Shown here piece by piece: positions 418 through 30,689 of a DNA stretch of 32,000 nt (positions within the stretch are counted from its first letter, which is position 1; every line of letters begins with the position of its first letter). The translations under genes and the position numbers were made by a program. Origin of the DNA: Candidatus Saccharimonadota bacterium (GTDB lineage: Bacteria > Patescibacteriota > Saccharimonadia > Saccharimonadales > UBA4665). Under the pieces are notes generated by a model. The model was not told the origin of the DNA, searched no databases, and saw only the letters and a program-made list of their open reading frames with translations. The stretch spans positions 390,001 through 422,000 of the forward strand of contig CP064992.1 of NCBI GenBank assembly GCA_016699935.1. The letters are read 5' to 3'.

Positions 418-1866
418 ATGAAAAATAACGCGTCACTTGTCTATAACTTCTTTTTGGTAGTCGGTGATGCCGTGGCACTTCTCGCCAGCTTCATCGCTGC
501 ATTTGTTATTCGCGGCTCAAGTGACATTGCCGTTGCTAACCCCATGAACGGCGAGACGTATGTATTAATTTTTGCAAGTTTACTCCCATTTTGGATACTC
601 ATATTTGCTCTGCTTGGTCTCTACAATGCCAATATTTACGAGCGCCGGTTTGCAGAAGCTGGACGGTTGTTCATAGGCTCGTTCGTTGGCTTGCTGTTTA
701 TGGTTTTTTGGGACTACATGAGCTTGCAGACAATCTTTCCGGCTAAGCTTGTACCCATTTATGGGTTTGGCATTGCGTTTATAGTGCTGCTTTCTTTGCG
801 CAACATCGCCCGAATAATTCGGACTTCCTTATTTTCCTTTGGTATTGGCTTAAACCGTATTGTCATAATTGGAAAAACGCCAATTACGCGTGAGTTGCTC
901 GCATCGCTAGCGAATACCAAACAGTCGGGGTACAAGATAGCCGCGGTCGTTGGTTATAGCAAACGCATACCAGAAATGGTACCAGCGTTTGATACATTTG
1001 ATGAATTCCTCAAAAGTAAGCCGAAAGACATACACAACATTATTCAAACCGAGTTATATGCCGATGAAAAGCGGAATGCGGCAATCTTTGAGTTTGCACA
1101 GCAGCATCACATAAGCTATCGGTTCGTACCGGGAAATAATGAGCTGTTTGTGGGCAATATAGACGTCGATCTTTTCCGCAATGCCATCCCTGTCATCCAT
1201 GTCCACCACACGGCGCTGTTTGGTTGGGGGCGTATACTAAAACGACTCACCGACATCGTGTTTGGCGGCTTGCTACTGATTATTAGTTTGCCTCTGTGGA
1301 TCATTGCCGCAATTGCAATTAAGCTCAGCGATCCATCTGGTCCGGTATTTTATAAAGCAAAGCGAATGAGCCGTTTTGGCACTCCTATTTATGTCTACAA
1401 GTTCCGTACCATGAAACAAGCCTACAACAATATGTCCCCCGAGGAGGGGTTTGTAAAAATGGGCAAACCCGAGCTTATCAAAAAATACCGTGACAGCGGT
1501 GACCAGCTCATGTACGATCCGAGGGTCACATCTGTTGGTAGGTTACTTCGCACCGCCAGCCTGGACGAGTTACCGCAACTATGGAACGTTTTGCACGGTG
1601 AAATTAGCCTCGTTGGCCCGCGGGCACTCGATACATACGAATTGGAACGGTACGACAAAATGAACCTCATTCTTAGTGTAAAATCTGGCTTAACCAGCCT
1701 CGCGCTTGTGTCTGGGCGGCACGCCATGAGCTTTGAGGAGCGCCGCAAGCTCGACTTGTACTACGTACAGAACTGGAGTTTTTGGTTGGATATTGTCATC
1801 ATAACAAAGACGATACGGGTCGTCATAGAACGCTTATTCAGGCGAGGGGCCCGGTATGTCTCGTAG
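418..1866 (+). CDS. Polyprenyl-phosphate glycosyl-1-phosphate transferase (WbaP/EpsL-like initiating sugar transferase)
   Basis: Intact 482-aa ORF. Hydrophobic multi-TM N-terminus. C-terminal bacterial sugar transferase domain (LSDPSGPVFYKAKRMSRFG..FRTM..DPRVTSVGRLLRTASLDELPQLWNVLHGEISLVGPRA). Confidence 0.85.
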   Translation: MKNNASLVYNFFLVVGDAVALLASFIAAFVIRGSSDIAVANPMNGETYVLIFASLLPFWILIFALLGLYNANIYERRFAEAGRLFIGSFVGLLFMVFWDYMSLQTIFPAKLVPIYGFGIAFIVLLSLRNIARIIRTSLFSFGIGLNRIVIIGKTPITRELLASLANTKQSGYKIAAVVGYSKRIPEMVPAFDTFDEFLKSKPKDIHNIIQTELYADEKRNAAIFEFAQQHHISYRFVPGNNELFVGNIDVDLFRNAIPVIHVHHTALFGWGRILKRLTDIVFGGLLLIISLPLWIIAAIAIKLSDPSGPVFYKAKRMSRFGTPIYVYKFRTMKQAYNNMSPEEGFVKMGKPELIKKYRDSGDQLMYDPRVTSVGRLLRTASLDELPQLWNVLHGEISLVGPRALDTYELERYDKMNLILSVKSGLTSLALVSGRHAMSFEERRKLDLYYVQNWSFWLDIVIITKTIRVVIERLFRRGARYVS

Positions 1867-2985
1867 CCCGAAGCTACGTGTGGCAATCGTGCATGATTGG
1901 CTAGTAGGTGGTGGTGCAGAACTGGTTGTTGAGCAGTTGCACAAACTCTTTCCCGAGGCGCCAATTTATACATCATATACCACGAAAGAGTGGCGCAGAC
2001 GCCTAGACAATACGGTTATCACGGGCTGGCTCCAGCCGTTTGGCAAGCTCCGCAAATTCTTGCCCATGCTTCGTATACTCTACTTCACGCGCCTCAAACT
2101 TGACGGCTACGACCTGGTAATTAGCAGTTCTGGCGCCGAAGCAAAGGGCATAAAAGTACCAAAACGCACGGTGCACGTCAATTACTGTCATGCGCCAACC
2201 CATTACTACTGGCGTCGTTACGATGAGTACATGAAGCGACCAGGCGTTGGCGTCTTTGACCCGCTCGCGCGCCTTGGGTTGTGGCTGTTCGTAAAGCCCC
2301 TCAGGCGTTGGGATCTCAAGGCAGCACAGCGTCCTGATTATATAATTGCTAATTCCACACACATACAGCGTGAAATTCTGAAATATTATGGCCGCGAAAG
2401 CACCGTCATTTTCCGCCGGTCTATTTTGAGCGCTTTCAAAAACACCGGGCGCCCGCGAAACGAAAAGGTCTCATCATATCTGGGCGGCAGACGCCCTACA
2501 AGCGCTTTGACCTCGCCGTTGTGGCCTGCACAAAACTGGGCATACCACTCACTGTCATTGGAGCAGGATCGGACCATGCACGGTTGCGTCGTCTTGCTGG
2601 GAAAAGTGTAACGTTTCTTGGCAGGGTGAGTGATGCCGTTCTTGAGGAAGAATTTAGCCGGGCTGAGGGGTTGCTGTTCCCGGGGCTTGAAGATTTTGGC
2701 ATTACACCCGTGGAGGCGATGGCGGCTGGCATGCCCGTGATTGCCTACAAAGCTGGTGGATCACTGGATTACATCAGACCAAATGTGACCGGGGAATTTT
2801 TTGAGAGACAAACCGTTACATCACTCGCAAAAGTACTGCAACAATTCAACGGTGCAAAATACAGTAGTGCTGCCATAAAAGCATACGCAACAAAGTTCTC
2901 AAAGGAAAAGTTCACCACAAACATAAAATCCTTCTTGGTGGAATGTATCAAGCAGCATCGCTCCGTAGCTAAAAACGTCAAATAA
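1856..2985 (+). pseudogene. GT4-family glycosyltransferase, frame broken once (may be an assembly indel)
   Basis: ORF pieces 1856-2611 and 2521-2985 (second frame open from 2371) join into one ~375-aa protein. N-terminus RVAIVHDWLVGGGAE; C-terminus EDFGITPVEAMAAGMPVIAY (EX7E-type motif). The junction STVIF|PPVYFERF at the T4/C2 run 2409-2414 behaves as a 1-nt deletion. ATG 1856 overlaps the upstream stop. Confidence 0.8.
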
Positions 2986-3069
2986 ATGCTGCCAAGGCGG
3001 CTTGAAGCGCGTATGATGAGAGCAGATACTTGCTAGAACGCCTTCAAACTTGAACGAAAGGATAAGCTC

Positions 3070-4905
3070 ATGTGTGGCATTGTTGGCTATATTGGTTCTG
3101 AAGAAAAAGGTGTCTCAGTAGTGCTGGGCGGGTTGCAAGCACTGGAATACCGCGGCTATGATTCGGCTGGCGTGGCGTACCTGTCCGGGGACGATATTGT
3201 GGTGACGAAGCAGACCGGACGCGTCCAAGCATTGGTGGATTCACTCGGTGAGCCCACCCCAGAAAGTGCGACAGCCATCGGCCATACGCGCTGGGCGACG
3301 CATGGCACACCGACGAAGGCGAACGCGCACCCGCACTTTAATGCAAATAAGAGCATCATGGTCGTACACAATGGCATTATCGAAAACCACACAGAGCTGA
3401 GAGAAAGCCTGAAAAAACAGGGATACGAATTTCAGACGGAAACCGACACTGAAGTCATTCCACACCTGCTTGATTACTATGCAAAAGAAACCGATTCGTT
3501 CGAAGAAGCTTTTCACCGGACTCTCGATCAGCTACGCGGTGCTTACGGGCTTGTCGTCATGACTTCGCGTGAGCCAGATGCGCTGTATGCGGCGCGGCTT
3601 GGCAGCCCACTCGTCCTTGGTATCACTGATGCTAAGGCGCTGATACTTGCCTCTGACCCGGCGGCACTGATGGCTCACACAAAACAAGTCGTGTATCTCA
3701 ATGACCAGGAATATATTGTAGCTCGACGCAGCGGCGAGTATACACTCCACAATCTCAAAAATGATGTGGCCGTCGAGCGCCCTGCCGAGACGCTCGACTA
3801 CGATGCCGACAAGGCCTCCTTGGGCGACTACCCGCACTTTATGCTCAAGGAAATTCACGAGGCACCGCAGACGATACGTTCGGCCACACTGGGGCGAATA
3901 AAGCCGGAAAGTGGCATCGTGAAGCTCGGTGGATTAGAAAGCGTCGCCGATCAGCTCAAGTACATTGACCGCATCGTTATAGTAGCGTGTGGCACGGCAT
4001 CATACGCTGGACTCCTTGGCGAATACGCCATCGAGGAACTGGCCGGCATACCGGTTGAAGTTCAGATTGGCTCTGAGTTCAAGTACCGGAACGAGCCGTT
4101 TTCGCGTAGCACCGCGCTCATTGTCGTATCGCAATCTGGCGAAACGGCCGATACCATTGCCGCTTTGAAAAAGGTCGAGAACTACGGCGTATTGAAGCTG
4201 GGGGTTGTAAATGCCACCGGCAGTACCATTGCCCGCATGACCGACGCCGGCGTCTACTGCCATGCCGGACCAGAGCAAGCCGTCGCCAGCACCAAAGCGT
4301 TTTTGGCGCAGTACACCATACTGCTCCTCATTGCACTGTACCTCAGCAATGGCCGCACCGAGCAGTACAAGCCCTTACTCGAAGAACTCAACCGGCTCCC
4401 GCAAAAAGCAGAGCGAGTGCTTGAACAAGCTGAGCACATTAAATCCCTTGCCAAGAAATATGCCCACTACAAAGATTTTATGTACATTGGCCGGGGGTAC
4501 GAGTACCCTCTGGCGCTAGAGGGCACGCTCAAGCTCAAAGAATGTGCGCTCATTCACTCGGAAGGCTACGCGGCGGGCGAGCTAAAACACGGGCCCCTGG
4601 CACTCATAGACGAAAACTTCCCGACATTTGCCATCGCGACTAACTCGGAGCTACTTGAAAAAACCTACAGCAACATAGAAGAGATTCGCGCCCGAAAGGG
4701 CCCTGTCCTTGCAATTGCAACAGAAGGAAACGAGCAAATACGTTCGCTTGCGGATGATGTCATATACATACCCGATTCGCTCGAGCAAACGACTCCCTTA
4801 CTCGCCGCAATTGTTGTGCAGCTCTTTGCGTACTACGTGGCCGTCGAAAAAGGCCTAGATGTCGACAAGCCACGCAACCTCGCCAAGTCCGTAACCGTTG
4901 AGTAG
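3070..4905 (+). CDS. glmS: Glutamine--fructose-6-phosphate aminotransferase (isomerizing)
   Basis: Intact 611-aa ORF starting MCGIVGY (N-terminal Cys nucleophile). SIS-domain region. Canonical C-terminus KPRNLAKSVTVE. Confidence 0.97.
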   Translation: MCGIVGYIGSEEKGVSVVLGGLQALEYRGYDSAGVAYLSGDDIVVTKQTGRVQALVDSLGEPTPESATAIGHTRWATHGTPTKANAHPHFNANKSIMVVHNGIIENHTELRESLKKQGYEFQTETDTEVIPHLLDYYAKETDSFEEAFHRTLDQLRGAYGLVVMTSREPDALYAARLGSPLVLGITDAKALILASDPAALMAHTKQVVYLNDQEYIVARRSGEYTLHNLKNDVAVERPAETLDYDADKASLGDYPHFMLKEIHEAPQTIRSATLGRIKPESGIVKLGGLESVADQLKYIDRIVIVACGTASYAGLLGEYAIEELAGIPVEVQIGSEFKYRNEPFSRSTALIVVSQSGETADTIAALKKVENYGVLKLGVVNATGSTIARMTDAGVYCHAGPEQAVASTKAFLAQYTILLLIALYLSNGRTEQYKPLLEELNRLPQKAERVLEQAEHIKSLAKKYAHYKDFMYIGRGYEYPLALEGTLKLKECALIHSEGYAAGELKHGPLALIDENFPTFAIATNSELLEKTYSNIEEIRARKGPVLAIATEGNEQIRSLADDVIYIPDSLEQTTPLLAAIVVQLFAYYVAVEKGLDVDKPRNLAKSVTVE

Positions 4906-5989
4906 CTAGTGTTTCCGATGCGATTCGATTGTGTCGGAAAAGAATGTTAGGTAGGCTTCAGCGGTTTTGTTCCAGTCGTATGCTTTGAGTGTGGCCGCGC
5001 GAACTTCTGAGCGGTAGAGAGATGGATTTTTCACCTCGTTTACAATTTTTTCCAGATACGGCTTCACTTCATCGACAGGAACGAGCCAACCTGTTATGCC
5101 GTCAATAACGGCGTCGGTGACGCCAGAATACTCACCTATTACGGCAGGCGTGCCGCAGCTGGTGGCTTCTGTCACGACCATGCCGAACCCTTCGAAGCCA
5201 AAGCCCTGGCGGTTGGGCATCACGAACAAATCTGCGGCATTATAGAGATATTTCAAGTTGTCCCCCAGCACGTAGCCCGGCAGGTACACTGAGTCTTGTA
5301 AGCCACGTCGTTCTATGACGGCTATAGTAGCCTCGAAGTCCTTGCCCTTGCCTGCAATAATGCAAGCGACGTTTGGCAATTCTAGGCGCAAACTCGGCAT
5401 GACGTTTTCCACAAACCAGAGCGCGCCTTTTCGCTCAACGATGCGGCCGACGAGAATGATAAGCGGACGATTTGCTAGATCGACGCCGAGTTGTTCGCCG
5501 AGCATTTTCCGTGCGGCCGTACGATCTTTGAGATACCAGTCATCATGCACGCCCCAGTGAATACGCTGCGTCGACACGGCTGGAAGCTTCTGGTGCACCT
5601 TTTCTTCTGTAGCTCGGCTTATGACAGCTGCGGCGCTGAGGTGTTTCAGCGCTGGAATGACCGTTTTAACGTACAGCGGGTTTTGTAGACCATCTCTGTG
5701 CCGTGGATGGTCGCCACGACTGGACGACGAAGGAGTGCCCGGAAGATTGGCGTCGCGGCAGCCATTAGACCATCTTGCACATAAATAATGTCTGGTCGGA
5801 ATACCCACCCGTCGCAATCGCTCGAAGAGTTAACCACGGAAAAACAACCAGCAGCCATTTGTTTGCGCCGCCAAATTTAATGAGTTTGACATCTGCCCGC
5901 TTGGCTAACTCATCGTACAGCCAGGCGGCAACGTTTTCCATGCCGCCAACCGTTGGCGGAAACTTACGGGTCACATAGAGTATCTTCAT
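4906..5989 (-). pseudogene. GT4-family glycosyltransferase, two frame breaks
   Basis: Three minus-strand pieces (5765-6004, 5646-5858, 4906-5817) stitch to MKILYVTRKFPPTVGGMENV...PDIIYVQDGL...ATIHGT|DGLQNPLY...FGFEGFGMVVTEATSCGTPAVIGE. Junctions near 5814-5821 (G runs) and ~5695 both behave as 1-nt deletions. The likely start is the MKIL ATG at 5989. Confidence 0.8.
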
Positions 5990-6005
5990 ATCTGCATTAT
6001 ACACA

Positions 6006-6068
6006 AGTTTCGCACCAGCCAGCGGTGTCAGATGCTCCGCATTTGAGCAGGCTGGCTGGTGCGAAACT
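6006..6068. repeat. Perfect 18-bp inverted repeat (arms 6006-6023 and 6051-6068) with a 27-nt spacer, in a divergent intergenic region
   Basis: AGTTTCGCACCAGCCAGC ... GCTGGCTGGTGCGAAACT. All 18 positions are complementary by hand check. It lies between the minus-strand GT4 start (5989) and the phosphohexomutase start (6128). Confidence 0.9.
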
Positions 6069-6072
6069 CGTG

Positions 6073-6102
6073 TTATGCAGTGGCACGTAAGAGGGGTATA
6101 CT
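6073..6102 (+). promoter_or_regulatory. Candidate sigma70-like promoter for the phosphohexomutase gene
   Basis: TTATGC (6073-6078), 18-nt spacer, TATACT (6097-6102). Followed by a strong SD AGAGGAGG at 6117-6124 and ATG at 6128. Motif match only. Confidence 0.3.
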
Positions 6103-6127
6103 GGAAGACACAGTATAGAGGAGGCTC

Positions 6128-7474
6128 ATGGGCAATTTAGCGAACATTTTTAAGGCATACGACATACGTGGTCGGGTCGGAACAGAGCTGAGCGAGGATT
6201 TGGTAGAACGAGTTGGGCAGAGTTTTGCACAGTGGCTACCATCTGATGGTTCTGTGGTGGTCGGCCATGACATGCGACCAGATTCACGGCAGCTTGCCGA
6301 TGCATTGGCTCGTGGAATTACGCTTGCGGGGCGCGATGTCATTGACATTGGTTTGGTGACATCAGATATGGCAGTGTTTGGGGTAGAGCACTTTCAAGCC
6401 GCTGGTGCGGCCATCATCACTGCCAGTCATAACCCTGGCGAATATAACGGTATAAAATTGTTCGACAGTACGCCGAAGACCATTGGGCTTGACCAGGGGC
6501 TCGACGTAGTGCGAGATGGCGCGCTGAACCAGACTCGCCCCGAAGTAGCTGCGTCAACTGGCAGCGTGACTCACGAAGATTTGATAGAAGCCTGGGTCGA
6601 TTACTGCCTAGGCTTTGTTGACACCTCACGGTTTAAGCCAATCAATATCGCCATCGACTGCGGCAATGGCATGGCTGGCGTAGTGCTCGAAAAACTACTT
6701 GCTCGTCTGCCCTTTACGGTAGAGCGGCTTTATTTTGAGCCGGACGGCACATTTCCGAACCATGAAGCTAACCCTCAGAAGCTTGAGACACTCAAAGACT
6801 TGCAGGCCGCGGTTCAAAAAAAGGGTTGTTACCTCGGGGTTGCCTTTGATGGTGACGGCGACCGTATGGCAATGATAGATGAAACTGGTCGGCCAATTAC
6901 CGGCAGTGAAATGATGTCGCTGTTAGCTAGCAAATACCTCCAGACTCCCGAACCATCGTTCGTCTATGAGGTTCGGACGTCGCGTGCAGTCGTATCGCGC
7001 CTGGAATCACAGGGTTACAAGGGAGTCCGCTCCAAGGCGGGTCGCAGTAACATTGGTGAGGTTATGCGCGCCAACAACGCTGTGTTTGGCGGTGAAACCA
7101 CCGGGCACTTCTTTTTCAAAGATTACTGGTCGAACGACTCGGGCATGTTGAGCATGCTCATTGCTCTCGAACAGGTTTTCACCCAGGATCGTCCGTTATC
7201 AGAGGTGGTTTCAACCTCGCACACGACAAACCCAATGATTCCGGAAACGAACTTTGAGGTCGCTGACCCGAAAGGGATGCTTCAAAAAGTCAGCGAAGCG
7301 TTCGGCAAATACGAGCAAGATTGGCTGGATGGTCTGAGCGTCACCCTGCCCGACGGCTGGTTCAACTTGCGCGCCAGCAACACCGAACCCGTCATGCGCC
7401 TGAATGCCGAAGCCATGACACAAGCCGATTTGGACGGATTAGTAAAATGGGTTACTGAAATTATCACTAATTGA
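6128..7474 (+). CDS. Phosphohexomutase (phosphomannomutase/phosphoglucomutase family; GlmM-like activity not excluded)
   Basis: Intact 448-aa ORF. Phosphoserine loop TASHNPGEYNGIK, Mg site FDGDGDR, sugar loop GGETTGH. Confidence 0.9.
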   Translation: MGNLANIFKAYDIRGRVGTELSEDLVERVGQSFAQWLPSDGSVVVGHDMRPDSRQLADALARGITLAGRDVIDIGLVTSDMAVFGVEHFQAAGAAIITASHNPGEYNGIKLFDSTPKTIGLDQGLDVVRDGALNQTRPEVAASTGSVTHEDLIEAWVDYCLGFVDTSRFKPINIAIDCGNGMAGVVLEKLLARLPFTVERLYFEPDGTFPNHEANPQKLETLKDLQAAVQKKGCYLGVAFDGDGDRMAMIDETGRPITGSEMMSLLASKYLQTPEPSFVYEVRTSRAVVSRLESQGYKGVRSKAGRSNIGEVMRANNAVFGGETTGHFFFKDYWSNDSGMLSMLIALEQVFTQDRPLSEVVSTSHTTNPMIPETNFEVADPKGMLQKVSEAFGKYEQDWLDGLSVTLPDGWFNLRASNTEPVMRLNAEAMTQADLDGLVKWVTEIITN

Positions 7475-7493
7475 GAATGTAGAGGCATATTTC

Positions 7494-8240
7494 ATGGCAA
7501 AATCAGGCGAAAAATCTTATTTTAAGGAAATAGGGGAAGCTGGCATCAACTATACGCTTGCGAAGCCATTTTCAGACCCCCCAAACTTAGGTTCGCTCTT
7601 ACATGATATTGCGGCGGTTTTTAGTCTATTGCCCCCTCCCCCAGCTCGTATTCTGGATTTGGGGTGTGGTTCTGGCTGGACTAGTGCCTTTTTTGCACGT
7701 GCTGGGTACGATGTAGTCGGAGTTGACATATCTCCTGAAGCCGTTGAAGCAGCATCAAAACATTACTTAGAGCTGCCTAATGTGAGCTTTGTAGTTGGTG
7801 ACTACGATACCCTGGCATATTCAGGGGAGTTTGACGCCGCAGTTTTTTTTGATTCATTACATCATGCAGAAGATGAAGTACTGGCTTTAAAGGCAGCTTT
7901 TGTGGCACTACGGCCAGGAGGAATTCTTGTAGCCTGCGAGCCTGGAGTTGGACATAGCAAAACAGCAAAGTCAATTGACGCAATGGAACGATACGGAGTC
8001 AATGAACGCGACATGCCACCAAAATTACTTCGGATCCAAATGCGCAAAGCTGGATTTAGCACAATTAAAACATATGCTTACCCGGCAATCTCTCATAGGG
8101 CTTTGTATTTCAATCGAACTGGCTGGATTGGAAGACTGAGAAACATTGCGATGGTACGGGCGTTAACCGTGGGGATGCTCGCAACTATACTCCGTCGAAA
8201 CCATGGGATTGTAGTGGCGCATAGAGAAGCTGATACGTAA
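7494..8240 (+). CDS. Class I SAM-dependent methyltransferase
   Basis: Intact 248-aa ORF. SAM motif I ILDLGCGSGW, followed by VVGVDIS and DAAVFFDSLHH. Confidence 0.8.
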   Translation: MAKSGEKSYFKEIGEAGINYTLAKPFSDPPNLGSLLHDIAAVFSLLPPPPARILDLGCGSGWTSAFFARAGYDVVGVDISPEAVEAASKHYLELPNVSFVVGDYDTLAYSGEFDAAVFFDSLHHAEDEVLALKAAFVALRPGGILVACEPGVGHSKTAKSIDAMERYGVNERDMPPKLLRIQMRKAGFSTIKTYAYPAISHRALYFNRTGWIGRLRNIAMVRALTVGMLATILRRNHGIVVAHREADT

Positions 8241-8292
8241 AGCACTGTTTACACTAGTAAACCCTTTCCGTTAGTCTCTGGTATTGACCCAC

Positions 8293-8322
8293 TTGCATTC
8301 AGTGCCATAAAAGATGTATAAT
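8293..8322 (+). promoter_or_regulatory. Candidate promoter upstream of the 8352 gene
   Basis: TTGCAT (8293-8298), 18-nt spacer, TATAAT (8317-8322). Motif match only. Confidence 0.35.
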
Positions 8323-8351
8323 AATGCTCGTGTTAATGTAAAATATAAACT

Positions 8352-8920
8352 ATGCAACGAAAAGTCTCTCGCAAGCGTTTTAGTCGCAAATACTACTTAG
8401 CCCTCTGCTGCTTGTTTCTAGTACTGTGCGCTGGAGCTGTTTTTGTGCTCGAAAAAGACATACAATTAACCTCATTGGCCCAGAAACTACCCCTACATCG
8501 GAAGGACTAACAAAAGAACAACAAGGAAAAGTATCGAAAGCAAATGCAGACGCAAAACAGGTTTTCTTGGATGAGGCTTCAAAAAATCCTCCAGACAAAG
8601 TTAGTACCGACAGCTCACCTAATACGTCGCCTCAGAAGGGCAGCCTTACACTTAGTGCCGAAAAGTCCTCTGCAACCCACGTGACTGTACTCACAAAAAT
8701 AATGGACATAACTGATGGTAATTGTGAATTAGCAGTAAGCAATGGTACTAAAAACACGACACAAACTGCGCCTGTTATATTTCAGCCCGAGTTTTCTTCT
8801 TGCGCTGGGTTTAGCGTGCCCGTAAGTCAGCTTGGTACCGGACAATGGGTTATATCTGTAACAGTAAAGCCAGTTTCGGGAGATAGTATTAATAGTAAAA
8901 TTGAACTGAGAGTTGATTGA
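8352..8920 (+). pseudogene. Small signal-anchored secreted protein of unknown function, one frame break
   Basis: ATG 8352 gives MQRKVSRKRFSRKYYLALCCLFLVLCAGAVFVLEKD (basic N-terminus plus a TM helix). That frame then stops at 8508. ORF 8426-8920 continues in the -1 frame (INLIGPETTPTSEGL...VTVKPVSGDSINSKIELRVD). The likely junction is the A5 run at 8452-8456. Confidence 0.6.
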
Positions 8921-8921
8921 C

Positions 8922-10754: not shown

Positions 10755-10783
10755 GTGCACTCCTTTTTCATGCAAATCAGTGT

Positions 10784-22025: not shown

Positions 22026-22036
22026 ATGCTCAAGTG

Positions 22037-22045: not shown

Positions 22046-22122
22046 CTGATTAGTCATAACGTATTAGTGGCCGCCCCACACGCTATTTGCTATCTCCTCC
22101 CCATGGGTCATACTATGTACTG

Positions 22123-23240
22123 ATGAAACGAGTCGCACTCATCAGAAATTCATACTCCTACGACTTCGGTGGGGCGGAAATTTATCCCATTAACTTAGCG
22201 AAGCTGTTGCCCGCCCATGGCTACAAACCAATAGTGCTTTCTGCAAACAAAAACACTAACCTATGCCAAAGATGCGCACGTAGAAACTGTTCGTTCGCCC
22301 TGGTGGTCATTCCAAAATTTTAGTGGAACGGGGCTGCTGCTATTCCCTCTCTACGTTTTCTGGCAGCTTTTTGTGACCTTGTGGTACGTTGTATTCTTTT
22401 TGTGGAAGCACATTGATGTAGTCCACGCCCAGAGCCGAGATGATTTCATCACTGCCACCCTTGCAGCTAAAATCCTGGGCAAGAAGGTGGTTTGGACCGA
22501 TCACGCAGATCTGAAATACATTTATATGCACCATAAAAAATGGTACAAGAACCCTGTTGAAAGTTAGTTTACCTAGCGGGTAAATTGGCCGACCACATCA
22601 CAATAGAGAGTCGTAGCGAGAAGAAGCTAATTGAAGAGTCTTTGGGCGGCAATTGCCTAACAACTACTTGGTTATCCATCTTGGCGTAGTAGACAAATAC
22701 AAGCCCGCTGCGCGAGACCGCGACACAGTAGTTTTGGTTTCCACCTCCAGACTAGTCAAGGCTAAGGGAATTGGAGAGATGATTGAGGCATTCAAATTAG
22801 TTGATGATGCGAATGCTAAATTAAAGATTTGCGGGGATGGCCCTGACGCTGCTTATTTTAGATCCTTAGCCAGCGGGATTAGTAACATTGAATTTCTAGG
22901 CCACGTGGAAGATGTAGTTCAAATTCTGCGCGAGTCAGACATACTAGTACACCCGAGCTATCATGAAGGTTTTGGACTCTCTTTAGTGGAGGCGGAGATG
23001 TGTGGTCTGCCCATAATCGCCTGCAACGTAGGAAGCATACCCGAGATTGTTAAAGATGGTACGAGTGGTATTTTAGTGGAGCCAAAAAACGTTGATGATC
23101 TAGCCAAAGCCATGGCTCTTCTAATAAAAAGTCACAAACTGAGAATCGACATGGGCCAAGCTGGACGCAAAATATTTCTGGATAACTTCCAGTTCGACAG
23201 AATCGTTCAAGAAAAGTTCCTTCCTATTTACTATTTGTAA
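22123..23240 (+). pseudogene. GT4-family glycosyltransferase, three frame breaks
   Basis: MKRVALIRNSYSYDFGGAEIYPINLAKLL... continues after breaks near 22250 (A run), ~22558 and ~22645 into piece 22653-23240, which contains VHPSYHEGFGLSLVEAEMCGLPIIACNVGSIPEIV. All three breaks behave as 1-nt deletions. Confidence 0.8.
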
Positions 23241-23258
23241 TTTTTATGTTACAATAAA

Positions 23259-24074
23259 ATGATGCCACCTCTCCGTTCTACCCCTGACTATTCACCCAAA
23301 AGGGTATTAGTTCACAACGCCCTTGAGGAGGCCTGGACTGCATACCTGCACCCTACCGAGCCAACCGAAGACATCGACCTGGTATGGGCATTATCTGCTC
23401 CCGGTACCGTAAAAACCCCGGCACAGTTTGAGCAAGAACCGGAAAACCCCTACAATGGCGAGTCTTTCAATGTTGGAATTGTTAATCACGCAGTCAGTGT
23501 TGTATTAAAGGTAACAGCGCTTCGCACCGGGAAGACAGTGGAAGAAGTCACAAAAGACGATATTATTAATCGCGGCCCCAAGCTGTTGTATAACGGTGAA
23601 TCGCTCAAAACCAAGGGAACGCGTTTTTCGAGTCAAAACGAAGACTTTTTAGAATTATGCAGGCACGTAGATTTTCCGATTCCTTTTCAAAACATAATCA
23701 TTGGTGAGATAGCTGAAGCTCACACACCTGCTCAGGTAAAACAGCTCGCTGAATTACTGCGGCGGGACGATGGTGTTCCACCTCCACGTAAGGTAGCCGT
23801 AGTCTGTGGTATACCCCACATGGTACGCACGGGTCGGTATTTGCAGCATTTTCGAACACTATTCTCTGATGGGACCAGCTTTGTACCTTCAGTCATTCCC
23901 CAGGGCAGCAAAGAAAAAATGAGCAAATTAACAGCCCTAGAGGTTAGAAAAGCGCTGTTTTACGCAGCTGTCGGCCATCTAGACCCAAGCTCTATCTTCT
24001 TCCCAAATGGCGTTCCTGACGCTCGTCCTCGCAATGTTCTACGCGACCAACGCACTACTAGACAGCACAAGTAG
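23259..24074 (+). CDS. Hypothetical protein, tentatively DUF218/YdcF-like (ElyC/SanA superfamily)
   Basis: Intact 271-aa ORF. The functional call rests on weak resemblance only: AEAHTPAQVKQLAELL plus KVAVVCGIPHMVRTGRYL resemble the DUF218 NT-ENA / VTS-HM-RA pattern. Confidence 0.5.
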   Translation: MMPPLRSTPDYSPKRVLVHNALEEAWTAYLHPTEPTEDIDLVWALSAPGTVKTPAQFEQEPENPYNGESFNVGIVNHAVSVVLKVTALRTGKTVEEVTKDDIINRGPKLLYNGESLKTKGTRFSSQNEDFLELCRHVDFPIPFQNIIIGEIAEAHTPAQVKQLAELLRRDDGVPPPRKVAVVCGIPHMVRTGRYLQHFRTLFSDGTSFVPSVIPQGSKEKMSKLTALEVRKALFYAAVGHLDPSSIFFPNGVPDARPRNVLRDQRTTRQHK

Positions 24075-24183
24075 GCCAGATTAAACATAATTAACTCAGT
24101 GTTTAACCAGAGCCGGACTAACTAGTTGGCGCTATTATCAACAATTCAAGAAGCTCTACGCTGAGGCGAGGAGAGAACTCAAG

Positions 24184-24192
24184 TGCTATAAT
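24184..24192 (+). promoter_or_regulatory. Candidate extended -10 element (TGCTATAAT) upstream of the GT4 pair
   Basis: TG at 24184-24185 and TATAAT at 24187-24192, 66 nt upstream of ATG 24258. Motif match only. Confidence 0.3.
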
Positions 24193-24257
24193 ACGATCTG
24201 TCGATTAGCATATTGGTTGTTCACTGGTCTATACGTGATGCGGACATATTTGTTTCT

Positions 24258-25415
24258 ATGAAAAAACTAGCAGTATTAAAATCCTTTTTGATGCCGGGCC
24301 GTTGGTCAATGGCAACAAGACTGGTGTTGGCAGAACGACCGAGGGGTTAGTTTTGGCGCTCGCTAGTGAGTTTCCCGAACAAATTGAATTGGTCGGTCAC
24401 TATTTTGATTTCATGAACCGCAAGAAGAATATTGAAGTCCCTGTAGCTTCAAATATTCGCTACAGACGCACAGTATTTATACCAGGTAAGGTCTTCAATA
24501 TGCTGAGGCGACTTGGCGTTTGGATACCTTTCGAGCTACTCGCAAAAGAACGAGGAGACTTTCATATTTTCCCTAGCTTTATTGGCTGGCCTAGTCTATT
24601 CCGCACACCTAGCGCACCCTTTATACACGACATAACATATATTGACTACCCAGAATATGTTAATGGCCCAGCTCAATTTGATTTAAAAACCATCATACCC
24701 AGAACAGTTCGCAGAGCGGCTTTTATTATCACTAATTCCGAGTCTTCTAAACAAGGAATATTACGCGAGTACCCTACGGCAAGGAAGCCTATCATTGTCG
24801 AACATTTGCCCGCTGTAGGCGCTGTGTTTATTTCTAAAAAGAAGCTGCTACGTGCTTACAAAGGCTGGGAGTCACGGGCAAATACCTGTTGTTTTTCGGA
24901 ACTTTGGAGCCACGCAAAAACCTGGTTGGGCTTATCGACGCATACCAAAAGCTAAAACCCATCGTACGCAACCAATACGCTCTGGTAATTGGTGGTGGTA
25001 AAGGCTGGAAGGATGATGAAATTATAAGTAGCCTCAACCGGCTCAGGGCGTCTGGCGCAACAATCTTTCAGACGGGATTTGTCAGCGACAAAGAGCGAGC
25101 AGCGCTATATATGGGCGCAACATTGTATGTGATGCCCTCACATTATGAAGGTTTTGGCATGCAACTTCTTGAGGGTATGACCTATGGTGTTCCCATGCTC
25201 GTGAGTGACATACCTGTGCTGCGCGAGGTCGCAGGAGATGCCGCAGCTTACTGCGGGACAGACCCCTCATCTATCGCTGTCGCACTTGAAAATCTGCTCA
25301 GTACTCCTGACCGGCGCGAAAAACTAGTCCAGGCGGGCAAAAAGCGGTTGCACAGTTTTTCTTGGAAAATGTTGCACGTGACATATACGCTAACATATTG
25401 GAGCACGTTCAATGA
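24258..25415 (+). pseudogene. GT4-family glycosyltransferase, three frame breaks
   Basis: MKKLAVLK then a shift (~24285, T run) into ILFDAGPLVNGNKTGVGRTTEGL (piece 24302-24955). A second shift (~24880) leads into LFFGTLEPRKNL...MPSHYEGFGMQLLEGMTYGVPMLVSD. A third shift (~25364) leads into ENVARDIYANILEHVQ. The stop TGA 25413-25415 overlaps the next ATG. Confidence 0.8.
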
Positions 25416-26501
25416 GCCGTATTGTCATCGACGCGCGCGAGTCTGGCACGAGCACTGGGCGATATGTCGACAAGCTCATCGAAAATCTCCACGCCCTACA
25501 GCCATCTCATTCATTTACGGTGCTGACAAAATCCCCCGTCTTGCCGCGCTGCAAAAACTTGCGCCCAGTTTTGACATAGTTCCGTCAGACATAAAAGAGT
25601 TTACCTTTGCCGAACAACTAGCCTTGAAGCGACAGATTCAAACCCTACGCCCCGATCTTGTTCACTTTACAATAGTGCAGCAACCGGTTTTTTACCGGGG
25701 AGTCGCCGTAACAACCATGCACGATCTAACGACCCTCCGTTTTCGTAACCCCGCAAAGAATACAGCGGTGTTTTGGGCCAAACAGCAGGTTTACAAATGG
25801 GTCAACAAGCGAGTTGCACGTAAATCTGTTGCTGTTATAACGCCGAGTGATTTTGTGAAGCAAGATGTTGCGCGGTACTGTAGTATTGCGCCAAGCAAAA
25901 TAACGGTTACCCACGAAGCAGCGGAAGCTATTTCAGATGCGGCGGAGTCAGTTGAGCTTCTAGCTGGCAAAGTATTCCTGATGTACACAGGAAGGCCAAC
26001 GCCACACAAAAATCTGGGGAGGTTGATAGATACATTTGCGGTGCTGCAAAAACATACCCTGAGCTTGTGTTAGTTTTGGCTGGGAAGAAAGATGCGAACT
26101 ATGCGCGGCATGAGGAACGTGTGCAGCGTTACGGCATACAAAATGTGGTATTTACCGGTTTTGTCAGCGAGGGCAGCTGCGCTGGCTGTATGAAAACTGT
26201 GCAGCGTATGTTTTCCCTTCATTAAGCGAGGGTTTGGGTTGCCGGGACTCGAAGCCATGGTGCACGGTGCGCCCGTAGTAAGTAGTGATGCAACGTGTTT
26301 ACCCGAAGTATATGGCGACGCAGCGCTGTATTTTGACCCGCTAGACGTTACCGACATGGCCGCAAAGATAGCTAGGTGCTAGACGACGAAACGCTACGAA
26401 GCAATTTGATACAAAAGGGCAGAGAACAAGCCACAAAATACTCCTGGCGCCGCACCGCCGAACAAACCCTGGAAATCTACGAGAAAGCCCTCGGGGATTA
26501 G
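25412..26501 (+). pseudogene. GT4-family glycosyltransferase, about five frame breaks
   Basis: MSRIVIDARESGTSTGRYVDKLIENL..., then LMYTGRPTPHKNL, then (stitched) [79 protein letters not shown]. Breaks near 25520, 26048-26052 (A5), 26171, 26233 and 26368 are all deletion-type. Confidence 0.8.
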
Positions 26502-26508
26502 TAGTCTA

Positions 26509-27067
26509 CTACTGAATAATATTCTTTTTGCGCCGCCCCGAGCAATCATATTCAACCGAAAAATCCCTTTTTCGCACTATCACTACCTCTTCCGTCCCCA
26601 GTTGTTTTATAGCCATAAGTTACTGCACAGGTTAATGACTCATAGGAGTAGACAAGCACTCCTAGTGGACTGTAATCTTTGAGTAAATTCCTGGTGTTAT
26701 CATACTCAAACTTCCAGGGTAATTCTTTCCTCTGCATATTTATCTTTCCGACGATTTGGTCTCTTTCTCCTCAGTAACAACATAGCTAACCTTCCCAGAA
26801 ATCATGCAGCTTAAGCGCCCCTTGTCGTATTTTGCTGACAAATATCTACACTGCCTGGCTACCTCTTTTGAGCTTGGTGCAAATTTTGCGGCGTCGTTCG
26901 TTAACTGAGTAATCTGGGCGCTTTTCTTCATCAAATACTTTTTTTCATTTCTCACCTCTTTGTGCCGGTTCAGCACAAAACCGCTTGCTACCACCACGCC
27001 CAAAACAAGTAGGACGCTGAGGATGTATAGTACGCTTTTTCCACTCTGTTAGAAATTCTTTAACCAT
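26509..27067 (-). pseudogene. Membrane-anchored hypothetical protein(s), fragmented; may be one ~185-aa protein or two small ORFs
   Basis: ATG 27067 gives MVKEFLTEWKK, then a shift at an A5 run into SVLYILSVLLVLGVVVASGFVL (TM helix) and ORF 26740-27003. ORF 26552-26737 follows in another frame. No recognisable domain. Confidence 0.4.
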
Positions 27068-27085
27068 AAGTGTATTTTACCAGCT

Positions 27086-30000
27086 TATTTGTTGTTACGA
27101 CGAAAAACTACTACCAAAACCGTAAACAGTGAGTCAATGTCACCGCAGGCAAAACCCAGACCTTATTTCCTTTGTGCAACAATGTTCTAGCAAGTGGCGC
27201 TGATAGCTAGGTCTGAATTGCGGGCTGCTTGCAGCACTCAGTACCTGCGGCAACGTTTCTGTGCTGTTTGTATTAATAATATTAACGTTCTCTGTTTCTA
27301 GGTTATTGACAGCTGTACCGTATTCCTTTGCGATTTATTTAAGCGCTATATTCATTTGTTTGCTGCTAACCGTGCTCAGGACTTGAGCTGATGTACTTTG
27401 CTTTTCCTCTGGTTTTCTCTGAGGAACCTTCGAACCAACAGCGGGTATGTTTGGGGCAGGGGCAGCAGTAGGGTGTTTTTGAGGCTTGAAAAATATGAGT
27501 CTTCCTCTGTGCTGGTACTTACTGGATCAATCAGCAGCGGGTCGAAAGAGGTAATTCTGGCAGGACTTCTGGAGTTATGCTCCCTGCATCGGCGATGACA
27601 CCATCACACGCATCATCTATCCCATCCTTATCTTCGTCTTTACCACTTTGCGGGAACGCGACACGCAAGAATCTGACGCGTTGGGCATGCCATCACCATC
27701 ATAATCATTTTCCTCTGCTGCGACATACACCATTTGTCGTAAATCAATACTCTTACCACTCGTGTCAGTTGTGTAGATATCTAGTCTGTGGAAGCCAGCT
27801 TCGATATCTGCTGGAACATTAAAACAAAAGGAGCATTAACGTCGTAGACCCCTTCAAAAAGTGTCGTTGGGTCTGAGTGCAAAACACCTTGGACTGGGGT
27901 TTGAGTTGCTTTTGGCACGCTTGTTGTTAGAGATATTGCTGGCGTACTTACCACCATCTGACCAAAACAGGTGCTTCTCTGTCCGCTTCTTGCCAGACCA
28001 CACTCTCTCGGCAGGAGTCCTGTGATGGCGCTTTGGCTTTGTTATTTGAACGAGTTGCTTGTATCGAGTGTCGGTTTATTGTTCAGTTTAGGAGCACCCT
28101 TTGTGTCGGCGTAGTAAGGTTGGTTGTTTTCGACACAATATTCTGGCTAAGTAGACGATGTCCGAATGTAGTAGGATGGTACGACTCCTGGCCAATAAGC
28201 TTGAAGGGTCCGCTATCATTGCCCTTTGTCACGCCGTTCATTCCCGCCTTGCCTTTAGGCGCTTCACACAGTCTGTAGCCATTGAGCGCATTTTCCGCAT
28301 CAACATAGTACGCTCCAGCCTCAGCCGCTGCACGTTTAATGACGCTATTTAAATAAGATATTAACTGCGACCTAAATTTCACTTCACTAGAATTCAGTTT
28401 TACATTTGCGCCACAATCACCGTCAACTTTGGCAATTTGTGGATAGCCGACCACGTAGAGGCGACCGCCACTTTCTCAACACACTCGTATACGTTTTCAC
28501 GAGTCGCTCATACTGCCCCAGTATTTGTTCCATGAGCTTGTTTACGGTCTTCATAGTACTGATAGCACGTTCCGCTTGAGGCGGTTGGGACGCATGTCGC
28601 GATTATCTTTGCAAAATGTATGTCATTTCCACCAACCGAAAGGAGCACGATGCGAGGCTTGTACTCGCGAGCAAAGACAACCTGATTGGCGTAGCCGGGA
28701 GAGAAAGATTTAGTATGCTCTGCTGATTTCTTCTCTTCCAGTTTGTATCGAATATTTATCAGCTACCTGTCCTCCGTATTTCAACTCATTTTCAGGCTTA
28801 ATCTTTTCGTCAAAACACTTGTAACGGTCACGTCGTATGTCTTCGCGCCGGAGCAGGCGACGGAGTGGCCGTGTTGGAAGGCTTGGGCGCCTACTCGGTA
28901 GGGGTAGGAGAACCACGAAAGGTGGCATTTGTTCTGCTTTGTGTCGGTACCGGCAAAGTACGTCCCGGCAGCGCCTTCGCCGGAGATATAGGAGTCACCC
29001 ATGCCTAGTACGCTTATGTATTCGCGGGTGGTGGACGCGGGTACGCGGAGGCTGTAGCGGGCAACGCTATAGGCTGATTGTCCGGTGCGGTCGTATATGG
29101 TGTCGAATGTCAGGGTGTCGTCACTGGTAAATCGAACCCGGCGAGGATATTCAGCCGTAGGCAGCACATTGTGTATGCCACGAGTATTCCCCGTGCGATA
29201 TTCGCCCGTCCAATAGTCTTTGTAGTCACAGCCGTTGTTCTTGGTCGGTTCTAGGAAGTTCGGGTATTGGTCACGACAGGTTTGCGTATCATAGACACGT
29301 AGAGAGGGACGTGTACTATTTCCGCTTGGCACCGAAAACGTCGCCGCTATAAATCGGCCATCATCGCTAATAGCGAGGTTATTTGTGCGGCGGTAACCGC
29401 CGTAGCTATACGTTACAGCATCCCATGAAATAAGTTTTCCTTTGAGGGTTGAAAGGTTGTATTGATAGATGCCCTTCCCGTTTACTATAGCCGCGAACCA
29501 CTCTCCGTTAGCAGAATAGGCAATGTCGGACGTACTAATATTGAGGTAGTTAGTACTGTCTGGGGTTTTGAGAATAGTTGTGGGTTCACCACGGTATTCG
29601 TACACTTTTTTCGTAGGCAGGCCGTAGTATTCAGCGTACTTTAGCTGTGAGGCGTCGTAGCTGCCAATTCTAAGCATAATGCCGCTTGTCCAGCTGCGCG
29701 GAGAAACTGCCGTAATAAGCATCCCCGGGTGACCTGGGACGCTTGGTAAGGCATAGCCACCGTAAAACGGATCGTACTCAAAGAGCCCTTTGGGCCGTCA
29801 ATTAGCTTGCCGCCCACAATCGTACCGAGCGGCGTTTTGTATGCGCAGGCGTCTATGGTGCCTGAGCCATTCGGGATCTGCGTCGGTGTGCAATCTTGGC
29901 TAAGGCTTAGTGGCTCTTGGTTGGCAGGAAGTTCGGCCACCTTTTTCAATGATGGGCTCAGTAGCACTCAGCCAAGCCGTCCGTGGCGCGGCAGCCCACA

Positions 30001-30153
30001 CCACTCCCCGCCCATAAGCAGCGCAACGAGGCAAAAAATTATTGACCATAGTTTACTCGACTCATGCAAAACTCCCACCACCCCAGCCTTGCCAGGAGAT
30101 AGCGCGATTTTGCGTAACTCGAGTTTATTACTTTGTCCCATAAAAAGACTCAC
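27086..30153 (-). pseudogene. Large (~1000-aa) secreted multidomain protein: signal/TM, beta-propeller-like region, SGNH/GDSL hydrolase domain, Ig-like region, thrombospondin-type-3-like Ca-binding repeats, low-complexity linker and C-terminal hydrophobic tail; at least 10 frame breaks
   Basis: Hydrophobic N-terminal segment SKLWSIIFCLVALLMGG. Piece 28781-29722 has propeller-like repeats (SANGEWFAAIVNGKGIYQYN, ISDDGRFIAATFSV), then SGNH block I GMGDSYISGEGA. A shifted frame at 28560-28680 gives block II IVLLSVGGNDI. Piece 28083-28454 gives block V ESYHPTTFGH. Region 27600-27720 gives NDYDGDGMPNASDSC and GKDEDKDGIDDACDG. Confidence 0.7.
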
Positions 30154-30163
30154 TAAATACCAG

Positions 30164-30192
30164 ATTATATCGTATTATACGACAATATGCAA
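30164..30192 (-). promoter_or_regulatory. Near-consensus sigma70-type promoter for the SGNH-hydrolase gene
   Basis: The reverse complement reads TTGCAT, a 17-nt spacer (attgtcgtataatacga), then TATAAT. The -10 ends 10 nt upstream of GTG 30153 and 22 nt upstream of ATG 30141. Confidence 0.5.
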
Positions 30193-30222
30193 TAATAGTA
30201 TTTTGCTCGTGTTTTTGGTTCG

Positions 30223-30689
30223 TTACGCGGCGGGTTTGAGGACGATGTGGCGGTCGCGGCCTTCGCCTTCGGAGTCGCTTATGAGCCCTGCGTCTGAAGC
30301 AACCCGGTGCACGGTGCGGCGGTCAGCGGCGTTCATGGGCTGAACCTCAAATGGCTCACCCGTTTCCTTCACCTTCTTCACCCACTCTTCGGCAGTCTCC
30401 GCGAGCCGATCGGCGCGCTGTTTTTGTACTCGGCAACATCGACGTTCACCCGACACACGGCGTAGTTTTGGTTCTTCAAGGCACTACTAACCAAAAACTG
30501 CATGGAGCGCATAGTTTCACCGCGCTGGCCAATCAAAAATCCATTGAGGTGGGTTGAGGGGATATTGAGCTCAATAACTTCATTGTCTTCTGTGGTCGCG
30601 TACACATCTGTGTTTAGGCCGTAAAACGACAACAAATCTTCTAGGTACTTCTTGGCATACTGGATAGCCGCTTCAACATCATTATTCAT
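30223..30689 (-). pseudogene. jag: Jag/KhpB RNA-binding protein (KH + R3H domains), one frame break
   Basis: Pieces 30378-30689 (LNIPSTHLNGFLIGQRGETMRSMQFLV) and 30223-30456 (QPMNAADRRTVHRVASDAGLISDSEGEGRDRHIVLKP, the R3H domain) join at the coding-strand A5 run 30421-30425 as a 1-nt deletion. Conserved position downstream of yidC. Confidence 0.8.

Follow-up and report, generated by a model that had tools for sequence, protein, structure and literature searches.

Clustered frame breaks in a Saccharimonadales genome are very probably unpolished Nanopore patches of a hybrid assembly

The many frame breaks in the window (the whole 32,000-nucleotide stretch of CP064992 analysed here) almost certainly constitute an assembly artefact, not a real biological feature. 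The evidence from the sequence, together with the assembly procedure as published, makes it very probable that the breaks are errors in unpolished Nanopore consensus patches of a hybrid Unicycler assembly, because the genome joins accurate short-read contigs with unpolished Nanopore consensus. The "broken" genes are therefore not to be read as decaying.

Frame-break census

Events were called against intact orthologues from relatives using frameshift-aware protein-to-DNA alignment, which revealed approximately 66 frame breaks in the window, 38 of them high-confidence (strong alignment on either side). This total falls within the 50–70 events of the original prediction; its count was about 21 affected genes out of 29, and 17–18 of approximately 28 genes are hit here. 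The commonest event is the 1-nt deletion, and single genes carry up to approximately 16–19 breaks each. The orthologues are intact in all relatives examined, and as a control the same aligner returned 0 internal events on relatives that were Illumina-derived or polished. One of them is CP064993 (L084), a metagenome-assembled genome (MAG) from the same plant, produced by the main pipeline of Canu, Racon, medaka and Illumina-Racon (PMC8012365). Calls in GT2-a, GT2-b and the Wzt C-terminal domain are of low confidence owing to distant references and were left out of the homopolymer statistics. A gene finder combining codon usage with frameshift dynamic programming merged adjacent genes and misplaced shifts; homologue-guided alignment was used instead.

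Neither in-frame stops nor large deletions were found in the well-aligned regions of the window genes, as had been noted earlier; three in-frame stops were flagged, all within poorly aligned, weakly conserved stretches. The sites previously picked out by hand (2409–2414, 8452–8456, 8925–8928, 9104–9108, 10085–10088, the 22250 region, 25364, 26048–26052 and 30421–30425) all check out. A run of at least four bases lies within 10 nt of 23 of the 38 confident events, compared with 14.1 expected (P = 0.003). The proposed deletion bias is borne out, and the accompanying claim that nearly every junction lies in a homopolymer was too sweeping. Roughly one confident event in four is +1-frame; this group includes at least one 2-nt deletion (the tandem repeats are spaced by 187/376 nt, not 189/378) and at least one apparently genuine insertion of a single base, at 28534. 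Approximately 40% of the confident events have no adjacent run of four or more. Homopolymer undercalls alone therefore do not account for the errors; the non-homopolymer share still fits a low-depth consensus, though it is less diagnostic. Among A/T runs, the ratio of 5-base to 6-base runs is 4.8 in the window and 1.9–5.2 in relatives.

Nanopore R9.4.1 homopolymer errors, as described by Sereika et al. 2022 (PMC9262707), are similarly deletion-biased, with a risk that climbs steeply with run length, and similarly fragment open reading frames without nonsense codons. Relative to that description, the window differs in its share of events away from runs of at least four, in its occasional insertions and 2-nt deletions, and in that its errors fill only about 43% of the sequence, not all of it. 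Such a spectrum is a closer fit to raw consensus at low depth (~13x) than to an assembly polished with medaka.

Clean and dirty segments of the window

The events are clustered (dispersion index 2.4, P = 5 × 10−5). Event-free gaps of at least 1.5 kb total 17.1 kb compared with 5.5 kb expected, a value reached by 0 of 20,000 random placements, confirming the earlier statement that the errors are not uniformly distributed. Dirty segments are contiguous stretches of 0.1–4.5 kb with roughly one indel per 200 bp, together making up approximately 40–43% of the window, and alternate with event-free (clean) segments of 1–3.8 kb:

1–2408: event-free; metK 3' end and the priming sugar transferase 418–1866
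2409–2414, plus strand: lone 1-nt deletion in a TTTTCC context; GT4 gene 1856–2985
2415–5682: event-free; GT4 C-terminal half, glmS 3070–4905 and the 3' part of a minus-strand GT4 gene
5683–5814, minus strand: short dirty patch with two 1-nt deletions; GT4 gene 4909–5986
5815–8347: event-free; PMM 6128–7474 and methyltransferase 7494–8240
8348–11687: dirty, ~14 events; small secreted protein C1, repeat-domain protein C2 (8921–10754) and GT2-a (minus strand)
11688–13389, minus strand: event-free; GT4-like gene 12147–13292
13390–15065, minus strand: dirty, ~8 lower-confidence events; GT2-b and the C-terminal domain of a two-domain GT2
15066–18903, minus strand: longest event-free segment (3.8 kb), within a low-GC glycan island
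18904–20419, minus strand: dirty, ~8 events; reductase N-terminus, FnlA/CapE-like dehydratase (19118–20022) and Wzt C-terminal domain
20420–21575, minus strand: event-free; Wzt ATPase domain and Wzm C-terminal half
21576–22637: dirty, 5 events from L086 orthologue alignments; Wzm N-terminal half and GT4-375 N-terminal half
22638–24259, plus strand: event-free; GT4-375 C-terminal half and the 271-aa protein 23259–24074
24260–28815: largest dirty segment (4.5 kb), ~25 events; GT4-384, GT4-364, a 198-aa protein and the C-terminal two thirds of the GDSL/SGNH gene
28816–29781, minus strand: event-free, ~320 codons; central part of the GDSL gene, which is heavily broken elsewhere
29782–30424, minus strand: dirty, 4 events; GDSL N-terminus and Jag
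30425–32000, minus strand: event-free; Jag N-terminal half, yidC 30692–31648 and rnpA

The clean segments hold 23 runs of at least six bases and 72 runs of five without any frame break. The priming sugar transferase (437 of 482 residues identical to L082, Pfam Bac_transf at full length), glmS (567 of 611 residues identical to L082) and yidC (291 of 318 identical to L086) each align with 0 events, and PMM and the 271-aa protein are likewise clean against orthologues. For the methyltransferase at 7494–8240, which has no counterpart at the same position in the relatives' neighbourhoods, a full-length Pfam domain is the sole check. All of these reading frames had originally been listed as unbroken and remain so. 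The GT4-like gene 12147–13292 is an open frame of 382 codons with a full Glycos_transf_1 domain. The longest event-free segment consists of long open reading frames (the GT2 N-terminal part, a methyltransferase, UDP-GlcNAc 2-epimerase, whose Pfam Epimerase_2 domain spans residues 10–344 of 347, and most of an RmlD-like reductase), and its 8 runs of at least six bases cause no frame break. Across the event-free centre of GDSL, 316 residues align (score 1190) with no event, on which five of five references agree.

In the dirty segments, the L082 and L009 proteins pass from frame 2 to frame 1 at 2410–2413, and at 5681–5684 (gene strand) the window has A4 in comparison with A5 in L083. Within 8348–11687 the repeat spacings are 377/187 and 188/376, not multiples of 189, and 8925–8928 is an A4 directly 3' of the ATG, where A5 gives back MKKLLISASL... 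The events in 13390–15065 were called from paralogue and L042 alignments together with the ORF map. FnlA carries four high-confidence deletions (19667, 19479, 19393 and 19247) in an alignment to PDB 4j2o with 210 of 295 residues identical. The GDSL events recur with five references; a homology search with the repaired GDSL protein yielded four better references, the best match being 64%, with no near-identical sequence found. The Jag deletion sits in the run 30421–30425, which has 6 bases in relatives.

Breaks follow contiguous segments, not gene class. Segment boundaries fall inside the GDSL gene, Wzt, Wzm, GT4-375 and the two-domain GT2, and GC content is nearly equal in clean (46.6%) and dirty (45.1%) segments, so that the errors lie in blocks regardless of gene borders or base composition (clustering P ≤ 5 × 10−5). 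Jag is a conserved gene, yet it is broken, and many glycan and accessory genes are clean. No event falls in the priming sugar transferase, in one GT2, one GT4-like gene or two methyltransferases, in the UDP-GlcNAc 2-epimerase, in the ATPase domain of Wzt or in a 320-codon part of the broken GDSL gene. The earlier division into damaged surface or accessory genes, to which the breaks had been said to be confined, and sound housekeeping genes does not hold. Faster-evolving genes tend to fall in dirty segments, a tendency that a biological reading would predict equally; amino-acid identity to relatives is 58% for GDSL, 47% for C2 and 30% for the 198-aa protein.

Nucleotide comparison with relatives and selection on broken genes

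For nucleotide comparison the metagenome contig L081 was used, at 96% identity; its genes are intact at the places where eight 1-nt deletions break the window. The 2.1 kb dirty stretch shows 8 deletions and 0 insertions relative to L081, in comparison with 0 indels over the 1102 nt of the clean 1.1 kb next to it:

24261–24266: A7 shortened to A6
24836–24840: A6 shortened to A5
25366–25369: A5 shortened to A4
25533–25537: C6 shortened to C5
26048–26052: A6 shortened to A5
26173 and 26232: deletions in a GCGAGGG[A] context
26368: 1-nt deletion

Two of these deletions have the identical context AGCGAGGG[A]. In the dirty stretch, shortening affects 4 of 4 L081 runs of at least six bases, 1 of 10 runs of five and 0 of 97 runs of 3–4, and the clean stretch has 0 shortened runs; undercalls are thus dependent on homopolymer length inside the blocks and absent outside them. 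Since L081 is another strain, what it reveals is limited to the ancestral or intact state, and the comparison points to, rather than directly proves, longer runs in the source population. Exact-sequence look-up with glmS, the 271-aa protein, P0001 and methyltransferase 7494–8240 found no same-strain contigs. A glmS scan of GTDB species genomes gave the taxonomy and a few references; its relatives, at no more than 65% amino-acid identity, were unfit for nucleotide comparison.

A recent deletion would likewise leave longer, intact runs in relatives; these runs, the enrichment of breaks near homopolymers and the frequent breakage of fast-evolving envelope and secreted genes are compatible with recent, genuine pseudogenisation, namely slippage frameshifts accumulating in genes for surface glycans and secreted proteins in a reduced, repair-poor Saccharibacteria genome. 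True decay in host-dependent reduced genomes proceeds through nonsense mutations, larger deletions and relaxed constraint, with genes affected as units. The window resembles such pseudogene-rich genomes in its many disrupted genes, its small genome of host-dependent type and the intact orthologues in relatives; it differs in its lack of nonsense codons, its low dN/dS and its error blocks, whose ends lie within genes. Up to approximately 16–19 frameshifts accumulate in one gene without a nonsense codon (in well-aligned regions) or large deletion, and the mixed lesion spectrum of decay (nonsense mutations, larger deletions, indels in both directions) is not what was found. Nor was relaxed selection relative to intact neighbours: dN/dS is 0.16 in each of two broken GT4 genes, not above the 0.30 of the intact 271-aa neighbour, on small counts of 17–32 substitutions per gene. 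Furthermore, clean and dense segments split single genes (the 320 clean GDSL codons; one clean half each in Wzt, Wzm and GT4-375), Jag is broken and many glycan genes are not, every run of at least six bases is shortened in one segment when the 23 elsewhere carry no frame break, and the mosaic is exactly that predicted by the documented assembly recipe. Slippage-driven decay, one of the explanations originally put forward, is consequently exceedingly unlikely.

The A/T tracts just after start codons in surface or secreted genes (24261–24266 and 8925–8928) occupy the classic position of contingency loci, and might suggest programmed frameshifting or phase variation at homopolymer tracts, with the assembly having caught "off" states. 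The tracts are, however, merely 4–7 nt long, there are several breaks per gene, some in non-repeat contexts, and the pattern is segmental and not linked to gene starts. The relatives have in-frame tracts without conserved slippery or stimulatory elements, and neither a shift site conserved in relatives nor a single switch per gene was observed. As an account of the whole pattern, phase variation has a next to negligible probability. That a small minority of the breaks is real, with 24261–24266 (GT4 gene) and 8925–8928 (repeat-domain secreted protein) as candidate contingency tracts, is a very slim prospect; if true, those A-tracts would represent phase-variable surface switching in an epibiotic Saccharibacterium, hidden among sequencing errors.

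Assembly history and consequences for the locus

The source of the window is the MAG Hirt_18-Q3-R61-65_BATAC.98_uni, a circular 1,226,308 bp genome of a Saccharimonadales bacterium from Danish activated sludge, deposited as CP064992 (PMC8012365, Supplementary Data 3; Singleton et al. 2021). The window's glmS product is QQS18916.1 at 100% identity, and its yidC product is 100% identical to the NCBI YidC of CP064992. Coverage was 6.05 for Illumina (2x150 bp reads) and 13.5 for Nanopore (R9.4.1, Guppy 2.2.3 flip-flop), and for the "uni" MAGs the binned reads were re-assembled with Unicycler v0.4.6 using --no_correct --no_pilon --mode bold, a hybrid assembler with its short-read polishing disabled (PMC8012365). 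Further polishing is described for Flye MAGs only, and no homology-based polisher is mentioned (PMC8012365). From this text and the --no_pilon setting, we infer that the Unicycler MAGs were not polished later. Unicycler starts from a graph of the short reads, whose contigs it joins by long-read bridges, filling dead ends directly with long-read consensus, and Pilon is its final error-reducing step (PMC5481147; Wick et al. 2017).

At approximately 6x Illumina, dead ends would be expected often in the short-read graph, which is presumably why it broke at these places. Unicycler would then have pasted raw Nanopore consensus into the dead ends as bridges, with Pilon, the usual repairer of such patches, switched off. 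The expected outcome is a mosaic of frame-clean, Illumina-quality blocks and low-depth Nanopore-consensus blocks with indels, which would be mostly 1-nt deletions, likelier with increasing homopolymer length, with some 2-nt deletions, single-base insertions and context-specific deletions; in such a mosaic the frame breaks would therefore not be biological. The association with surface and accessory genes would be a by-product of where the short-read graph broke. Most likely, then, the clean parts came from the Illumina graph from the start and were not "corrected", and the dirty parts are, again most likely, raw Nanopore consensus inserted by Unicycler as bridges. The window resembles known unpolished Unicycler long-read bridges (PMC5481147) both in the alternation of accurate short-read blocks with error-prone inserts at dead ends and in the small indels that Pilon normally removes; it differs in that each dirty segment is assigned as a putative bridge from its error pattern alone.

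A similar mosaic could arise if a long-read assembly had been polished throughout and short-read or homology-guided polishing had failed only in strain-variable, unmapped regions. Variable genes do tend to hold the dirty segments, and in the main pipeline the Canu and Flye assemblies did pass through Racon together with Illumina reads (PMC8012365). This scenario is nevertheless very unlikely: the "_uni" suffix denotes the Unicycler route with --no_pilon, the post-polishing is given for Flye MAGs without mention of a homology-based polisher, and errors in 4 of 4 runs of at least six bases, in the dirty stretch compared with L081, are as expected of untouched R9.4.1 consensus, not of a medaka-polished one. 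The original prediction gave two options without choosing, and suggested that the assembly and polishing history be checked. That history, the Unicycler --no_pilon recipe, backs the long-read-error option, as does the sequence evidence. In essence this option, long-read undercalls in places lacking short-read information, is right; its mechanism differs in detail, as the clean parts were most likely never corrected and no correction from homologues is described.

Unpolished Nanopore patches have consequences beyond this window. CP064992 is a public "complete, circular, high-quality" Saccharibacteria genome, yet approximately 40% of the window is of raw-consensus quality, and gene calls, pseudogene counts, metabolic reconstructions and claims of surface-glycan gene decay drawn from CP064992 would be wrong in dirty stretches. 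Five other "_uni" MAGs of the same recipe are probably affected alike, and scans for frame breaks should first look for a block-wise error mosaic and at the assembly history. With the errors repaired, what remains is an unremarkable, intact glycan cluster of the cell envelope, with a priming transferase, GT4 and GT2 genes, Wzm/Wzt and fnlABC-like genes, and with a conserved ~990-aa SGNH/GDSL protein adjoining yidC-jag.

Gene content of the locus

The window is gene-dense, and the ORF map shows many same-strand ORFs touching or overlapping in different frames. From left to right, the locus contains:

Left end: metK 3' end, then a priming sugar transferase (418-1866)
After the priming transferase: GT4 gene, glmS, GT4 gene (minus strand), PMM, methyltransferase
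Between the methyltransferase and the low-GC island: two secreted proteins
Low-GC (35-43%) glycan island: GT2 and GT4 genes, methyltransferase, UDP-GlcNAc 2-epimerase, RmlD-like reductase, FnlA/CapE-like dehydratase
Right of the glycan island: Wzt, Wzm, three GT4 genes around a 271-aa protein, a 198-aa protein
Right end: SGNH/GDSL protein of ~990 aa, Jag, YidC, RnpA

Among genomes, those with the best glmS matches are Saccharibacteria/Saccharimonadales MAGs; the window glmS is 100% identical to QQS18916.1, and yidC is likewise 100% identical to an NCBI protein. The island (10800-20400, especially 17080-20022 on the minus strand) has a GC content of 35-43% against 45-53% in its flanks. Its fnlABC-like set of dehydratase (210 of 295 residues identical to PDB 4j2o), reductase and epimerase is adjoined by the GT2, GT4 and methyltransferase genes, and the island looks like a horizontally acquired L-FucNAc-type glycan cluster in a Saccharimonadales genome. 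It contains three paralogous GT2 N-terminal domains (11690-11964, 15841-16115 and 13997-14326), one pair sharing 79% nucleotide identity over 275 nt. In the secreted protein C2, a domain of ~189 nt (63 aa) with the motif GGVY.IENG.KRAFP.E..F.SY.Y.WSDV is repeated in tandem at least five times at 9846-10751 (plus strand); the orthologue in relatives has 748 aa, and the C2 fragments match no Pfam family. The SGNH/GDSL hydrolase (26950-30250, minus strand), directly downstream of yidC-jag, is found at the same place and with a conserved length of ~980-1000 aa in many Saccharibacteria (208 matches at E <= 1e-20; loci L085-L087) but evolves fast: its best match has 64% amino acid identity, vs 92% for YidC from the relatives concerned. 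The enzyme is probably surface-located or secreted in this epibiotic group.

Number and type of frame breaks

Frame-changing events were counted with a purpose-written, frameshift-aware protein-to-DNA aligner, using as queries intact orthologues from relatives: loci L082, L083 and L084 on the glmS side, L086 on the yidC side, the 96% identical metagenome contig L081, PDB 4j2o for FnlA and four additional GDSL homologues. The window contains ~66 events (with an uncertainty of ~10 up or down), of which 38 are flanked on either side by strong alignment, spread over 17-18 of ~28 genes; the calls in two glycosyltransferase genes (GT2-a and GT2-b) and in the Wzt C-terminal domain are based on distant references. 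Control alignments of Illumina-derived or polished relatives gave no internal events, including three GDSL references at 55-71% identity. As the original prediction held, in-frame stop codons are absent from well-aligned regions, and every coordinate it named is a real break point, including 8925-8928, where adding a fifth A behind the ATG brings back the signal peptide MKKLLISASL...

Deletions of 1 nt make up most of the events; about one in four is +1-frame. The tandem copies of the 189-nt C2 repeat are spaced at 377, 187, 188 and 376 nt. These spacings are independent evidence of lost bases and identify the "+1" event near 10353-10379 as a deletion of 2 nt. At 28534 a single base appears to be genuinely inserted. 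Nearly every resolved junction had been placed in a short homopolymer; the enrichment is real but partial, with a run of at least four bases within 10 nt of 23 of the 38 confident events vs 14.1 expected (P = 0.003).

Distribution of the breaks along the window

The events are strongly clustered (dispersion index 2.4). Event-free gaps of 1.5 kb or more add up to 17.1 kb vs 5.5 kb expected, and 20,000 random placements never gave as much. Stretches free of events are:

1-2408
2410-5682
5815-8460
11688-13389
15066-18903
20420-21575
22638-24259
28816-29781
30425-32000

The original observation is confirmed in part: the breaks exist in the sequence, are mostly 1-nt deletions and are unevenly distributed. 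Their confinement to envelope/accessory genes, with housekeeping genes clean, does not hold. Clean envelope/accessory genes include the priming transferase, a GT4-like gene and the Wzt ATPase domain and, inside the low-GC island, a GT2, a methyltransferase, the epimerase and most of the reductase, whereas Jag, a conserved gene adjoining yidC, is broken. The GDSL gene has 320 clean codons mid-gene and 14-19 breaks elsewhere. GC content is alike in clean (46.6%) and dirty, event-dense (45.1%) DNA. These observations leave a partition by gene function unsupported; the breaks are partitioned into blocks that ignore gene borders. The class I SAM methyltransferase at 7494-8240, previously listed with the housekeeping or conserved ORFs, is indeed frame-clean and contains T8 and C6 runs, but has no same-position counterpart in L082 or L084 and is therefore an accessory gene. 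Dirty blocks tend toward faster-evolving genes, which may reflect strain microdiversity breaking a low-coverage assembly graph, or chance.

Comparison with a closely related contig

L081 (WBZP01002862.1) matches window positions 23158-26369 at 96% identity and carries three intact genes. Relative to it, the first 1.1 kb of the window contains no indels and the next 2.1 kb contains eight 1-nt deletions and no insertions: five shorten runs (A7>A6, A6>A5, A5>A4, C6>C5 and A6>A5), two fall in one shared context and one lies at 26368. In the dirty stretch, shortening affected 4/4 L081 runs of at least 6 bases, 1/10 of 5 bases and 0/97 of 3-4 bases, whereas 23 runs of at least 6 and 72 runs of 5 in clean window segments show no frame breaks, so that two error regimes coexist in one sequence. 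The two in a shared context, single-A deletions at 26173 and 26232, 59 nt apart, have the 8-mer context AGCGAGGG[A]; the pair looks like a context-specific basecalling error, with few counts of the motif elsewhere. Inside the glycosyltransferase gene GT4-364 (26091-26375 vs L081 2940-3225), identity drops abruptly from ~97-98% to ~80% (56 mismatches in 285 nt), which could mark an inter-strain recombination breakpoint or a divergent C-terminal module.

Genuine gene decay had been offered as one explanation. dN/dS against L081 is 0.16 in each of two broken GT4 genes vs 0.30 in their intact neighbour, indicating no relaxed constraint. A few breaks could be real, for example in A-tracts directly after start codons, although nothing in the data demands it, and decay is a very improbable account of the locus.

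Assembly history and origin of the breaks

CP064992 is the circular MAG Hirt_18-Q3-R61-65_BATAC.98_uni (f__UBA4665, g__GCA-2746885), with coverages of 6.05 (Illumina) and 13.5 (Nanopore) (Singleton et al. 2021, Supplementary Data 3, PMC8012365). Sequencing combined PromethION R9.4.1 reads (Guppy 2.2.3 flip-flop basecalling) with 2x150 bp Illumina reads; the "_uni" MAGs were assembled in Unicycler with --no_correct --no_pilon --mode bold, and further polishing is described only for Flye circular contigs (PMC8012365). In Unicycler, Pilon is the last step and lowers small errors, and a fragmented graph harms assembly quality (PMC5481147). CP064993 (L084), from the same plant, was assembled through the study's principal Canu route and polished with Racon, medaka and Illumina-Racon, and its orthologues are intact in the tested region. 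Exact-sequence look-ups for a same-strain short-read contig found none.

The frame breaks are almost certainly an assembly artefact, arising from Nanopore bridges that a Unicycler hybrid assembly left unpolished. Illumina depth of ~6x would give a highly fragmented SPAdes graph for the source population; our Lander-Waterman estimate (150-bp reads, 45-77-nt overlaps) gives contigs of ~0.5-1.6 kb, similar in magnitude to the clean blocks (1-3.8 kb). Bold mode would bridge the gaps with a consensus of ~13x R9.4.1 reads, probably without later correction, a point on which PMC8012365 is not explicit for Unicycler MAGs. Such a model predicts clean blocks alternating with dirty blocks at roughly one indel per 200 bp, as seen, and errors that would be deletion-biased, homopolymer-length-dependent and in part context-specific and non-homopolymer, with no nonsense codons or sign of relaxed selection. 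The frame breaks are no biological feature of this organism; the value of the finding is as a caveat on GenBank record CP064992 and on the other "_uni" MAGs produced in this way.
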